From the IMG/VR virus record IMGVR_UViG_3300009095_000011, positions 32,001 to 96,000 of that record: a stretch of 64,000 nucleotides of DNA. One strand, written 5' to 3'. The position numbers were made by a program, and so were the translations under genes. Of the stretch, positions 5,455 through 59,614 are shown piece by piece; the stretch's first letter is position 1, and each line of letters opens with the position of its first letter. Source of the stretch: a virus. Lineage: Duplodnaviria > Caudoviricetes. Below the pieces are notes generated by a model, which searched no databases, had not been told where the DNA came from, and saw nothing but the letters and a program-made list of their open reading frames with translations.

Positions 5455-5709
5455 TTAATATTTAATAAGATTATAGTTTTTATCAAGCTCTATGGATTTT
5501 GTCCATTCCTTGAAGGCTTTTAATTCAGGTTTTCTATTTAAAAATTCTTCTGGATCTTCTCCAAATTTTCTACCTAAAATATGAGAAGCTAGTGCCATTT
5601 TAATATCTGATATTACATTCATCATATTGGTTTTATTGCCATTTGCTTGTTCTAATCTTTTTTTAAATCTTTCTATTCTTGTCATTTCTTTATTCTTTAG
5701 GTTAAACAT
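5455..5709 (-). CDS. Hypothetical protein
   Basis: ORF track; downstream of the promoter motif at about 5715-5745. Confidence 0.55.
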   Translation of the reverse strand: MFNLKNKEMTRIERFKKRLEQANGNKTNMMNVISDIKMALASHILGRKFGEDPEEFLNRKPELKAFKEWTKSIELDKNYNLIKY

Positions 5710-5761
5710 CTATGTAAATATAAGATTTATATTTAATATATGCAAATGTTTATATAAAAAA

Positions 5762-5791
5762 TAAGGTGTGATAAATTAATACCACACCTTA
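5762..5791 (-). terminator. Putative intrinsic terminator
   Basis: taaggtgtg...cacacctta hairpin followed by a T-run on the minus strand. Confidence 0.55.
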
Positions 5792-5817
5792 CGCAAATAT
5801 AGATGATTAACAGAGAA

Positions 5818-14045: not shown

Positions 14046-14624
14046 TTAATTTTTAATTTCATAACCTGCTTCATTTGGCGATGGAATATACACATTGTGC
14101 TCTATTGCAGCCCAATCTCTTATTGATTCAATATATTGACTAAATTCATAAGTGTCTTTGTCAGTGGTTGTTAATGGAATATTTCGAGTTTGAGTGATTG
14201 TAATAAACTTACCATACTTAGGCCAATTGTCAATATCAATCACTGTATATTTTGGTAACAAAGGGAGCTTATTGGAACTGATTAGCATATCATTGATATC
14301 TTTTTCTTCGAGATATTGTGCAGGTTTTTCAAATTCAAATATACTATCATCATAAACCTCAAAGTATTCGGTTTTTATTTCAATCTTTCTGCTATTGAAT
14401 TGTAGTTTGAGAATCTCATGCATCTCATCTGTATTATATCCAAAATAATCACTAAGGATTTTAACTACCACTGCAAAATAGTAACTGTTCTGTTCCCTTG
14501 ATCTATTTCTTCGATACTTCTTTATAGAAAACCAGTAAGCAATATCTTCAAGTGTTTCAAGATGTTTGAGTACTTTATCTCTGTGATGAGGATTAGACCA
14601 GTCTATAAGGATATCAAGGTTCAT
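14046..14624 (-). CDS. NinB-like recombination protein with internal insertion
   Basis: [13 protein letters not shown]...EMHEILK and TT...[14 protein letters not shown]...IPSPNE motifs. Confidence 0.7.
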
Positions 14625-15433
14625 ATTGGTAATGGAATTTTATTGAGCAAATTAGTACTTACATGGGTGTATATTTCTGTAGTCTTACTTGAATTGTGTC
14701 CTAATAACTTCTGAATTATCCTTATATCAGTTCCATTCTCTAACAATGAAGTTGCACTTGAATGTCTTAATTGATGAAAATGATATTGATTGCCCAAATA
14801 TTTCTTTATAATTTGATTACAAGAAGTGGATGAATATTGAAGACAATTTTGACCATTAAATAAATATTCTTTTGGTTTATATTGTTTATAATAGTCTCTA
14901 AGTAATTTAAGAATATTTTCACTTAATGGGACAACTCTATCTTTTCTACCCTTGGCATTTTTGATATTAATTATCATTCGCTTACTGTCAATATCCTTAA
15001 TTTTAAGATTGATTACCTCAGATACCCTAAGTCCTACAGAATATGCAAGCGAAATAATTGCTTTATGTTTAATGTTTTCAATCTTGGGAATCTTATCTAA
15101 AAGATATTTTTGATCGATTATTTGAGGTAATTTTTTCTCTTTCTTTGGTCTGGTAAATGAAACCTTATCATACTTTTTGTTTAAGCCAAACTTATATAAA
15201 AACCTAATGGCATTTATGACTTGATTTTGTTGAGAAATAGAGGAGAAATTGTATTGATCAAGATAGGATTGGAAATCGCTTGCAACTAAATGTTGATAAT
15301 ACTTACCTGTACTTTGAATAAACTTATCTATATAGTGAATATAGATACTTATCGTTCTTTCTGAGTAATTAAGATATTTAAGCTTTCGTTCGCAAATCTT
15401 TAAAATATCTTCTTTTTTCTTATTCATAATCAA
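14621..15433 (-). CDS. Tyrosine recombinase, integron-integrase-like/Xer-like, without the IntI I2 insertion
   Basis: N-terminal SAM-like YSERTISIY...[14 protein letters not shown]; catalytic R (GLRVSE), K (KGRKDR), HQLRH, LGH and Y (TTEIYTHV). Probable ATG at 15427. Confidence 0.92.
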
Positions 15434-15480: not shown

Positions 15481-15786
15481 TTATTCCTCTGGTGTATCTA
15501 ACATATATCTCCAATATTTAACGTCTGTAAAATCAGTGTACCAACTACCAGCACCTAAAATAAACCAATTATATTCGTGTTTGGGACTACCAGTTCTTTT
15601 TATCAACTGTAATTTTGCTGGAGTCCATATATCATCATAAAACACCAAAACATAATCACTTTCTCTTTTTTCTTCAACACTTCCTTCTCTTTTATCGCAT
15701 TCTGCAATTTCCCAAACTTCATTTCCTAGTTTTGGTATTTCATTAATTGTCAGTTTATAGTCCATAATTTTAAAAGTGCCTAACAA
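15481..15786 (-). CDS. Cassette 1 hypothetical protein (array 2)
   Basis: ORF track; flanked by GTTAGGCAC (15464) and GTGCCTAAC (15776). The likely start is the internal MDYK. Confidence 0.7.
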   Translation of the reverse strand: MLGTFKIMDYKLTINEIPKLGNEVWEIAECDKREGSVEEKRESDYVLVFYDDIWTPAKLQLIKRTGSPKHEYNWFILGAGSWYTDFTDVKYWRYMLDTPEE

Positions 15787-15901
15787 AGTGTATAAGCAAT
15801 AGCCGTTAGACGTTTTAAACTATTGCAGTTGTTAATAATAATTTTTATTCTTCTAGTCAAGTTTTGTGTTCGGCTACTGCTCATACACTAAACCGTTGTG
15901 C
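15776..15901 (+). repeat. attC-like hairpin site 1 (array 2)
   Basis: gtgcctAAC-aa-agtgtataagcaatagccg ... cggctactgctcatacact-aaacc-GTTgtgc. Confidence 0.85.
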
Positions 15902-15907
15902 GCAATA

Positions 15908-16177: not shown

Positions 16178-16301
16178 AACACAAAATAAAATGCAGTGGG
16201 TTGTACGTCTTATTTACACTGCTTGCCTGTCTGTTAGTTTCGGTCAGTCGGACAGCTCAGGCTTATCTATCCCACCGACATTTTATTCAAATTCGTTGTA
16301 G
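16167..16301 (+). repeat. attC-like hairpin site 2 (array 2)
   Basis: gtactgcgcacAAC-acaa-aataaaatgcagtggg ... cccaccgacattttatt-caaattc-GTTgtag. The left end is complementary (13/14) to gttgtgcgcaatac at 15895. Confidence 0.85.
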
Positions 16302-16305
16302 GCAA

Positions 16306-16587
16306 TTAGTCTGCCCTTTCACCACTTCCAAAACAAGTAAGACAGGGCAATATTTCATTAGTACCTTTACCACTAAAACCTTCGCCTTCACAATTCGGGC
16401 AAACTAACTGTTCGCTTTGCCCTACAACATTAGATAAAACCAATAATGCTTGGTCTATCTGCCGTTCTTCTTCTTGTAATTCAGACGCTATTTCAGCTAT
16501 ATACTGATCTACTTCTTTTGGCATTTTCTGAAACTTTTTATCTATTTCAGACTTTCGTTTTATAAGGATGTTTATTACTTTCTTCAT
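16306..16587 (-). CDS. Cassette 3 protein: coiled-coil N-part encoded in the attC loop plus a CxxCxGxG zinc-finger C-part
   Basis: 93 aa; reads through the left arm as ALLVLSNVVGQSEQL; CPNCEGEG and CLTCFGSG motifs. Confidence 0.75.
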   Translation of the reverse strand: MKKVINILIKRKSEIDKKFQKMPKEVDQYIAEIASELQEEERQIDQALLVLSNVVGQSEQLVCPNCEGEGFSGKGTNEILPCLTCFGSGERAD

Positions 16588-16619
16588 CGCATTACTGTTT
16601 TTATCATTATACGTTGTGC
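16417..16619 (+). repeat. attC-like hairpin site 3 with a long coding loop (array 2)
   Basis: ttgccctacAAC-atta-gataaaaccaataatgc ... gcattactgtttttatc-attatac-GTTgtgc. Confidence 0.75.
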
Positions 16620-16963: not shown

Positions 16964-16989
16964 TGCATTAAAACGATTGCACAACAACC

Positions 16990-17015
16990 ATACAAATATA
17001 AACGTTTTATCTATT
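16990..17015 (-). promoter_or_regulatory. Phage promoter facing into cassette array 2
   Basis: Minus strand cTTGCAtctaatagataaaacgttTATATTTGta matches the Bacteroidota TTG / TAnnTTTG consensus. Confidence 0.7.
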
Positions 17016-46808: not shown

Positions 46809-46834
46809 GGTGAGAGAGTGTTTTATATGTTTAA

Positions 46835-47122
46835 TTAAGATTGATAATTTACCGAAACCATTTTATCAAAAAACCAATGGGTAGGTAATTTTTTCTCTGG
46901 ATATTTAAAAATATATGATCTTTTGTAAATGGAGCCAGTAAAAGCTGATCCATTCAACATTTTTATAATATATTCAATTTTATTATTTGTTTTATTAATT
47001 TCCAAAACTTCCCAAAAATTAACACCTCTTGGTGGATTATTTTGTTCAATAATATCGCCAACATTAATATGTTCTGGATTTCCAAAACTTACAGGTCTAT
47101 TATTTATGTATTTAGCTTTCAT
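46835..47122 (-). CDS. Moron hypothetical protein
   Basis: ORF track, 95 aa, inside module A. Confidence 0.6.
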   Translation of the reverse strand: MKAKYINNRPVSFGNPEHINVGDIIEQNNPPRGVNFWEVLEINKTNNKIEYIIKMLNGSAFTGSIYKRSYIFKYPEKKLPTHWFFDKMVSVNYQS

Positions 47123-47206
47123 TTTCTTATCTTTTAATTAAACATCTAATTGTTATATAAATATACAACTTATATTTTAGATATGCAACTTTTGAGGAGA
47201 AATATT

Positions 47207-49475: not shown

Positions 49476-49488
49476 AGGATTAATATTT

Positions 49489-49929
49489 GTGTAAATATAG
49501 CTAAATATTGGGAGAAAATAAAAAAAGCCTCAATTATTTTGAGGCTTCCTATCTTAATTAGATTGCTGTTTAGTGTTATAAGTTATCATCTCTTTATCTT
49601 TTAGTTAGGCGTAATTTTATTCAAGCCCAGTATCACGCCACCAAAAGTTATCAATATCCTCGTCTAAGTCTTTACCAAGTTTTTGACTTGTCATTCCCTT
49701 CATATTTTCACTACCTGCCATAACATCCCATGCTGTTTTGAAAGCCTTAATGTATAATGCTTTAGTTTCCTCAACAGAAAAACTACACCTAACATCAGAT
49801 TCTTGATGTTCGTTGAAACTTTGTATGTATTTGCTATTTTTCATCGTCTTAAATTTTAGTTAAACATCTAATTGTTATATAAATATAAGACTTATATTTT
49901 AGATATGCAACTTTTGAGGAGAAATATTT
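49489..49929 (-). other. Moron-like module B, containing a cassette-like insertion
   Basis: Same promoter and terminator flanks as modules A and C; terminator at 49521-49547. Confidence 0.75.
49617..49844 (-). CDS. Hypothetical protein in the solitary cassette
   Basis: 75 aa; reads through ctacacctAAC (49783-49793) as SDVRCSF; GTTaggcgtaa at 49604. Confidence 0.65.
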   Translation of the reverse strand: MKNSKYIQSFNEHQESDVRCSFSVEETKALYIKAFKTAWDVMAGSENMKGMTSQKLGKDLDEDIDNFWWRDTGLE

Positions 49930-50169
49930 TTACAACAAAGAACCTAATCCAGTTGTTGCACCTGTTTGTGAGGTTGCCGATCCTGCTGTCGATACGGGAA
50001 TACCAGCCTGAACATCTGCACTCAATATTGCATCTCTGATTACATCAGCAAGCTTATCGCAAAATTGATCCAATAATACTTCTGGATCTTTTTTAGTAAC
50101 ATCACCGCTATTCATTTCCTCAATGATAGCTCTTATTTGTGTCTTTATTGTTTGCTTGATTACTGCCAT
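49930..50169 (-). CDS. Small spike/baseplate-associated protein
   Basis: GIPVSTAGSATSQTGATT C-terminus; follows the spike gene. Confidence 0.55.
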   Translation of the reverse strand: MAVIKQTIKTQIRAIIEEMNSGDVTKKDPEVLLDQFCDKLADVIRDAILSADVQAGIPVSTAGSATSQTGATTGLGSLL

Positions 50170-59242: not shown

Positions 59243-59614
59243 ATGTAAATATAGCTAAATATTGGGAGAAAATAAAAAAAGCCTCAAAATTAATTGAGGC
59301 TTTGGTGAAAATATGATGGAAGTTTATATTAAGATATATTTACCTTCATTAACTCCTTTGTGAAATCCCTTTATTGACATCCACCAAGTTGATTGTCTTC
59401 TATTTAGTAAACCTCTTGAAGTAGTTTTCCCATCTGTATAAATTACTCTTGTCTCAGTCACTTGAACAACTGTATTGATTGTTCCATAATCCGTTTTAAA
59501 CTTCAAACCTGATTTTATTTCTGTTTTCATCTCTTTATCTTTTAGTTAAACATCTAATTGATAGTATAAATATAAGAATTATATTTTAGATGTGCAACAT
59601 TTTGAGGAAAAAGT
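59243..59614 (-). other. Moron-like module C
   Basis: Same flanks as modules A and B; terminator at 59274-59303. Confidence 0.75.
59324..59530 (-). CDS. Moron hypothetical protein
   Basis: ORF track, 68 aa, inside module C. Confidence 0.6.
   Translation of the reverse strand: MKTEIKSGLKFKTDYGTINTVVQVTETRVIYTDGKTTSRGLLNRRQSTWWMSIKGFHKGVNEGKYILI

Follow-up and report, generated by a model that had tools for sequence, protein, structure and literature searches.

The locus at 49480-49932 raises the question of how the body of an integron-like cassette came to lie behind the leader of a phage promoter module, and of which part of that module is foreign DNA. The window, i.e. the whole 64,000-nt stretch that was analysed, is part of a 114,226-bp phage genome in which three near-identical shells are found on the minus strand: module A (47210 down to 46740), module B (49932 down to 49480), which is the subject here, and module C (59619 down to 59233). 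Each shell is composed of a TTGCA-class promoter, a leader with CAATTAGATGTTTAAC, a spacing of ~14 nt, an ATG, a small ORF and an intrinsic terminator, and all of the genes around module B are encoded on the minus strand as well. The TTGCA-class element is taken to be a promoter from its repetition upstream of ORFs; a sigma-70 scan did not call the copy in module B. Altogether, 9 promoter and 8 leader copies are present in the 114-kb genome, and the repeat families D1-D4 and D6 flank small ORFs in the manner of PeSL-like composite units. The features of module B are collected in Table 1.

Table 1. Features of module B and their positions in the window
Feature	Coordinates	Strand	Basis or remarks
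Predicted promoter, TTGCA-class	49878-49932	-	Repeat family D1; 95% identical to that of module A, 80% to that of module C
Conserved left leader part CAATTAGATGTTTAAC, contains GTTAAAC/GTTTAAC	49859-49874	-	In register among the 8 copies in the genome
First leader remainder TAAAATTTAAGACG, 14 nt up to ATG	49845-49858	-	19/24 to that of module A (with TAAC, ATG and AAA), gapless
Start codon and 17-codon head MKNSKYIQSFNEHQESD	49794-49844	-	Unique to this genome; resembles N-terminus of ORF A family
Cassette body, 190 bp, residues 18-75	49604-49793	-	~91% nt identity to L001-L003
Chimeric 75-aa ORF, head joined at Val18 (GTT) to body	49617-49844	-	ORF list, homologue comparison
Second leader remainder TAAAAGATAAAGAG and ATG, directly after cassette AAC	49587-49603	-	Exact 20-mer; repeat family D6, 25/26
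11-codon ORF MITYNTKQQSN and stop	49554-49589	-	Direct reading
Intrinsic terminator, common to modules A and C	49522-49550	-	12-bp stem and T run; 0.1 expected; repeat family D3
9-bp direct repeat TTTTAGTTA, copy 1	49599-49607	+	Copy 2 at 49854-49862, 255 bp apart

In module B, 255 bp separate the two halves of the module C leader, both of which are matched exactly: CATCTCTTTATCTTTTAGTT at 49587-49606 and 59528-59547 (0.02 expected) and TTTTAGTTAAACATCTAATTG at 49854-49874 and 59540-59560 (0 expected). The first-pass annotation had described this split leader correctly. The interruption is flanked by the 9-bp direct repeat. Transposon insertion was considered on account of this repeat and rejected, as direct reading revealed that the ends of the insert are not inverted repeats of each other. 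The GTT-type cores that had been reported at the two junctions are also present, as GTTAGGC at 49604 and GTTAAAC at 49859, both of which conform to GTTRRRY/RYYYAAC, and GTTAAAC does recur in promoter leaders, at 2910, 5701, 49859 and 59545. This heptamer is not enriched (9 in the window vs 9.5 expected); it is found in leaders because it is part of the conserved leader that occurs 8 times in the genome. The insert possesses complementary ends, as had been claimed, although about 1 nt from where they were first placed: the arms GTTAGGCGTAA (49604-49614) and CTACACCTAAC (49783-49793) are complementary at 9/11 positions. Inverted repeats of the form GTT+8...8+AAC are at chance level genome-wide (36 pairs vs ~42 in shuffles), so the 9/11 repeat cannot stand alone as evidence. 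Finally, the AAC at 49791-49793 is read in frame as Val18 of the 75-aa ORF, which bears out the in-frame read-through seen at the first inspection.

The shells themselves vary in a patchwork fashion. The promoter and terminator stem of module B match those of module A, while its second leader remainder and the restart region that follows the terminator match module C, and this mosaicism points to gene conversion or exchange among shells. Two inverted repeats elsewhere in the window involve leader sequences. On the minus strand at 5701-5811, the left leader part, a TTGCA-class promoter and the hairpin of a terminator are enclosed in 111 bp bounded by GTTAATCATCT and AGATGTTTAAC, a 10/11 inverted repeat; this could be a regulatory unit bounded like a cassette, but as such repeats occur at chance frequency in the genome, it may be without significance. 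In module A (46829-47143), GTTTAATTAAA of the leader recurs in inverted form as CTTAATTAAAC at the ORF A stop codon, a pairing that is probably due to chance, the shared TTAATTAA being itself a palindrome. At the downstream end of module B, the 11-codon ORF that had been called an ORF remnant is present and is followed by the terminator; its tail and the end of ORF A are not significantly similar (p 0.17). The mini-ORF and terminator (49518-49577, minus strand) matched the Rfam Phe leader peptide at 24.5 bits (gathering threshold 55, E 0.089), which is almost certainly a chance match, even though a short ORF ahead of a terminator is attenuator-like in form; the Rfam search as a whole yielded only sub-threshold chance matches.

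The body of the 75-aa ORF belongs to a family with sharply defined ends. In a collection of 5.8 billion proteins, seven homologues of the 75-aa protein, which more than 60 contigs encode, were found at 84-89% identity, with residues 17-75 common to all, while the first 15-19 residues of the eight family proteins represent at least four unrelated head types, the switch occurring exactly at D-V-R. At the DNA level, the body is carried by three metagenome loci (L001, L002 and L003), and the block conserved in these loci and the window extends from GATGTT followed by AGG(C/T)GTAG to TAAAATTACGCCTAAC, i.e. it ends at GCCTAAC. In module B the body correspondingly has GTTAGGTGTAG (49793-49783) at one end and TTACGCCTAAC (49614-49604) at the other. 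The sequences that flank it in L001, L002 and L003 are unrelated to module B on both sides and are also unrelated among the three loci. The presence of the body in unrelated contexts with fixed ends indicates that the 190-bp body is a real mobile unit, with terminal inverted repeats whose GTT and AAC cores set its limits. Residue 42 is the first Met in frame, so that translation of the body depends on a donated upstream head. In the relatives, the segment upstream of the body is a long hairpin (z -2.8 to -3.4), the loop of which carries the ribosome-loading region, the ATG and the head. In L002 and L003, hairpin, head and body recur together as a single block within different surroundings, and in L001 the AAC is immediately followed by a perfect hairpin of 19 bp (z -7.6).

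Ahead of the body in L002 (4940-4975) and L003 (935-975), the hairpin loops contain CAATTAACAAC and then AAAAAGAT(A/G)AATAGAGATGAAAAG, a motif close to the module leader of the window, CAATTAGATGTTTAAC followed by TAAAAGATAAAGAGATGAAAAC, with a BLAST match that was not significant in the small database used. Based on the leader-like nature of this motif, leader-type start regions appear to occur inside cassette hairpins also. The function of the protein is not indicated by its sequence: it had no match in Pfam or PHROGs and gave no Atlas lead, and longer fused forms of it were not found. An AlphaFold2 model depicts three helices at moderate confidence (pLDDT 71).

At the 3' junction of the insert, on the low-coordinate side, cassette homology ends at the AAC (plus-strand GTT, 49604-49606), and homology to the leader of module C starts at the TAAC (49607 down to 49604) and is identical for 22 nt through the ATG, such that the second leader remainder together with the overlapping TAAC reproduces the leader of module C. 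The cassette and leader tracts overlap by these 4 nt, zero bases have been lost or gained, and the register is that of an uninterrupted module. On the cassette side, the break falls at the very base from which the sequences of L001, L002 and L003 no longer agree. Only TAAC is shared at 49604-49607, and the cassette side is without homology to the module; for this reason, the junction is not predicted by random deletion or by a PeSL-type exchange, whereas a core-to-core exchange does predict it. These observations support the view that the leader GTTAAAC was the partner of a cassette core at least once. Thus far, the first-pass proposal that a cassette was inserted at the GTTAAAC of the leader has held, as the insert contains a genuine family body and its 3' AAC/GTT join is in perfect register; the other end of the proposed insertion, at 49859, has not.

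The junctions might nevertheless have arisen without a recombinase, by microhomology-driven illegitimate recombination or by unequal, PeSL-like exchange of modules during phage replication, in which case the GTT and AAC at the breakpoints would be coincidental. The modules are mosaic, module B sharing its promoter and terminator stem with A and its leader remainder and restart with C, which implies that the repeated regulatory units exchange frequently, as is documented for PeSLs; short overlaps (TAAC; TAACTAAAA) are present at the junctions, and the lack of GTTAAAC enrichment fits with coincidence. However, a PeSL exchange depends on homology in both partners and would leave the entire terminator-promoter unit in duplicate, while at module B the junction does not lie inside homology of both partners, TAAC being all that they share. 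The cassette side has no leader homology and breaks exactly at the family AAC where L001-L003 diverge, and the other break falls exactly at the GTT where heads are swapped. Two random breakpoints that coincide with both cores are unlikely, and we consider a recombinase-free origin to be improbable.

On the 5' side, it had been thought that the cassette boundary lay at 49859 and that the insert contained a degenerate hairpin, and neither idea is supported by the results. The stretch 49794-49858 does not fold, either as it stands (z -1.4 to -1.5) or after circular permutation (z -1.2 to -1.7), where only two short arms pair and folding is no better than that of shuffled sequence. Neither 49783-49869 nor its circular form has a stem beside the cores, as a folded attC would, while the segments of relatives and of the array give z values of -1.9 to -7.6. 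The stretch instead has the appearance of module DNA, with a TAAC-to-ATG spacing of 14 nt, as in 5/8 leaders, and an ORF-A-like head. At the protein level, the head MKNSKYIQSFNEHQESDV is similar to the N-terminal part of ORF A family proteins (z 3.05, p 0.010), vs p 0.39-0.97 for the heads of other cassette copies. Because the similarity of the A and B heads at the DNA level is not significant (p 0.12), the resemblance to ORF A is moderate evidence only. The ORF A family has 11 members and is conserved end to end, and the final Val of the head aligns with Val21 of ORF A, where AATGTTGGCG is present in ORF A vs GATGTTAGGCG in the cassette. No other instance of the MKNSKYIQSFNEHQES head paired with the body was found among the 5.8 billion proteins, and no second copy of the 49794-49858 stretch was found in the collections searched. 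In our judgment, the GTT read in frame as Val18 (49791-49793) is a likelier start of the cassette DNA than 49859.

This choice of boundary bears directly on whether module B could have been formed in one step. A circular cassette consisting of body, start region, head and attC-like site might have integrated between the G and the TT of the leader GTTAAAC in an 'empty' module, duplicating only the core and putting the gene under the promoter. One event would suffice, and joining of the two leader parts does restore a complete module-C-type leader. Furthermore, in the circular form R'/R'' pairing at 9/11 positions would be possible between the cassette start that follows the GTT and the 49783-49793 arm, the hairpin-head-body block of L002 and L003 is a precedent for the movement of these parts as one unit, and IntI-type enzymes use secondary sites (PMC3518468). 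Yet the supposed attC interior (49794-49858) is without an L''/L' stem, its ends are unpaired and its z values are only -1.2 to -1.7; within it, 49845-49858 looks like a native leader remainder, by its 14-nt spacing and its 19/24 match to that of module A, and the head resembles ORF A (p 0.010). An integron-type exchange would have no need of the extra TTTTA that is shared before the GTT, and the head-body pairing is absent from other genomes among the 5.8 billion proteins. One-step integration therefore seems to us an unlikely source of module B.

We favor instead, with a probability of roughly one half, a history in which module B was assembled by core-site joins that the cassette recombination system made on secondary sites, in at least two events. 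Both ends of the foreign DNA are at GTT/AAC cores that the family uses elsewhere, and on this basis the recombination system most likely made the junctions. Module B would have started as a paralogue of module A, of which the promoter, the full leader, the ATG and ~17 codons remain intact. The head would have been joined at an in-frame GTT (Val18) to a start-less, integron-like body of 190 bp, and the AAC of this body to the remainder of a second, module-C-type leader, with the 11-codon ORF and the terminator of the shells coming next. As secondary sites, a GTT within a gene resembling ORF A (ORF A itself has AATGTTGGCG at Val21, vs GATGTTAGGCG in the cassette) and the AAC of the leader would have been used. 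Two routes may be envisioned. A hairpin-bearing cassette may have inserted at the leader and a GTT-to-GTT deletion from a neighboring ORF-A-like module then taken place, or capture at the GTT of the ORF may have been followed by an AAC-to-AAC deletion to the leader of the next module. Either route would remove the hairpins and fix the body in place, and the product would be a hairpin-less unit that uses the module promoter for transcription and the module start codon for translation. Counting against this two-event history are that it is less parsimonious than one insertion and that the 4-nt TAAC overlap is also expected from microhomology-mediated illegitimate joining. In view of the mosaic modules, PeSL-like exchange among the shells is certain to act here in addition.

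The candidate actor in these events is a tyrosine recombinase of 270 aa (14621-15433), which matches PF00589 (Phage_integrase family), PF13495 and phrog_1 and is shorter than IntI. Beside it lies a cassette array with the layout AAC, segment, GTT-body-AAC and with cassette-specific inverted repeats, the segments of which fold end to end (z -1.9 to -3.7); one of its cassette hairpin sites is at 15783-15905. Two elements of the array region deserve mention in their own right. One, a tiny unit at 16965-17010 on the minus strand, consists of GTT and GTGCAATCGTTTTAATGCACCACAAC and comes right behind the TTGCA-class promoter of the array itself; it resembles an empty inverted-repeat unit without a body and precedes the first hairpin. 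The other is the cassette ORF at 16306-16587 (region 16300-16612, minus strand), which has a 52-aa head between an AAC and an in-frame GTT, GTTGTAGGGCAA, paired with TTGCCTACAAC at its end. The body is a Cys-rich, zinc-ribbon-like tail, and the long segment, too, still pairs end to end.

Because the genome was assembled from a metagenome, the duplicated leader might in principle be a chimeric join made by the assembler at a repeated sequence of 22-26 nt, and the second leader copy is indeed identical to that of module C over 22 nt. We regard an artefact of this kind as very improbable, as the region lies in one contig of 114,226 bp, in which the flanking genes and the 75-aa ORF are intact, and the cassette boundary agrees with independent assemblies. 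Moreover, common assemblers finish with k-mers that are longer than this repeat of 22-26 nt.

Searches for relatives of the locus itself returned little. The nearest cultured relatives are Bacteroides and crAss-like phages, at no more than 40% aa identity (192-aa neighbor, tblastn), and blastn of the locus against phages gave no match. Related loci were found neither in viral contigs, searched by the 192-aa neighbor and by the cassette family, nor in genome contigs, and exact patterns of the leader, head, second leader and terminator gave no match in viral contigs or a single chance match (L004). The leader 20-mer had six matches in genome contigs, all in unrelated contexts; one of these, in a Bacteroidales MAG (L006, 4348-4367), places the 20-nt leader core upstream of the ATG of a lipoprotein gene, after a TTTG motif. 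All six, including the latter, look like chance. No empty-site or intermediate relative was present among phages, viral contigs or genome contigs, and the order and number of events proposed above are accordingly hypothetical, module B being a single case.

The closest parallel among known systems is the integron. Integron integrases are known to recombine attC with secondary sites of the GNT/GTTRRRY type, one of which was located inside a coding sequence (PMC3518468), and fused integron cassettes that have lost attC have been described (PMC4670013). Module B resembles such cases in being a solitary cassette outside of an array, with GTT-core junctions and downstream of a resident promoter, and in having been fixed after loss of the folded site and fused in frame to the start of a neighboring ORF. 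It differs in several respects. The host of module B is a lytic-type phage of Bacteroidota-like hosts, the sole recombinase here is the Xer-like 270-aa protein, and the ORFs of the phage cassettes face the other way relative to the recombinase. In addition, the phage bodies lack a start codon, which is normally supplied, together with the head, by an adjacent hairpin loop, and both ends of the body, GTT and AAC, act as exchange points in the phage family. Module B is therefore best described as integron-like: the defining folded site is absent here, and the recombinase is at most a putative IntI.

The PeSLs of T4-type phages, which are promoter-early/stem-loop mobile regulatory cassettes with crossovers between Shine-Dalgarno and -10 boxes (PMC2839356; see also PMC4122927), offer a second comparison. 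Here, too, near-identical promoter/terminator units surround small, unrelated, non-essential ORFs inside conserved blocks, and the units are mosaic, suggestive of exchange among copies. In contrast, PeSL shuffling occurs by homologous recombination, while module B joins a leader to non-homologous DNA at a core triplet. Morons, as conceived by Juhala and Hendrix, are self-contained units of promoter, gene and terminator that have inserted between conserved genes. Modules A, B and C conform to this description, each having a predicted promoter, a small ORF and an intrinsic terminator between baseplate/tail genes, and module B, with its own predicted promoter, ORF and terminator, lies among structural and lysis-type genes. 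While morons as a rule have no relationship to one another, a single standard shell is common to modules A, B and C, and the cargo of module B derives from a cassette.

That promoter leaders act as secondary integration sites, as the first-pass annotation had proposed, is consistent with one junction, that in module B; the proposal does not extend to the cargo genes of modules A and C, which are ordinary small phage genes, conserved end to end and without head swap, and the other seven leaders of the genome are without a cassette. The link that had been drawn between the cassette system and the morons likewise has its basis in module B only. A broader scheme, which we put forward tentatively and consider possible rather than probable, is that start-less bodies may leave the array, dock via GTT/AAC cores onto the 5' ends and leaders of the promoter modules within the structural operon and seed new chimeric morons that are expressed at once, the leader serving as a second attI-like dock and the module head replacing the hairpin head.

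If the junctions were accidental, the locus is only a rearranged moron. If, on the other hand, the phage recombinase made them, module B would illustrate how a gene can pass from a cassette array to another place in a viral genome and become fixed and expressed there. Short GTT sites in leaders (GTTTAAC) or in coding sequence (ORF-A-type AATGTTGG) could then be landing pads, and the finding would bear both on the origin of morons and on how new small proteins are put together when a start region is donated to a mobile body.
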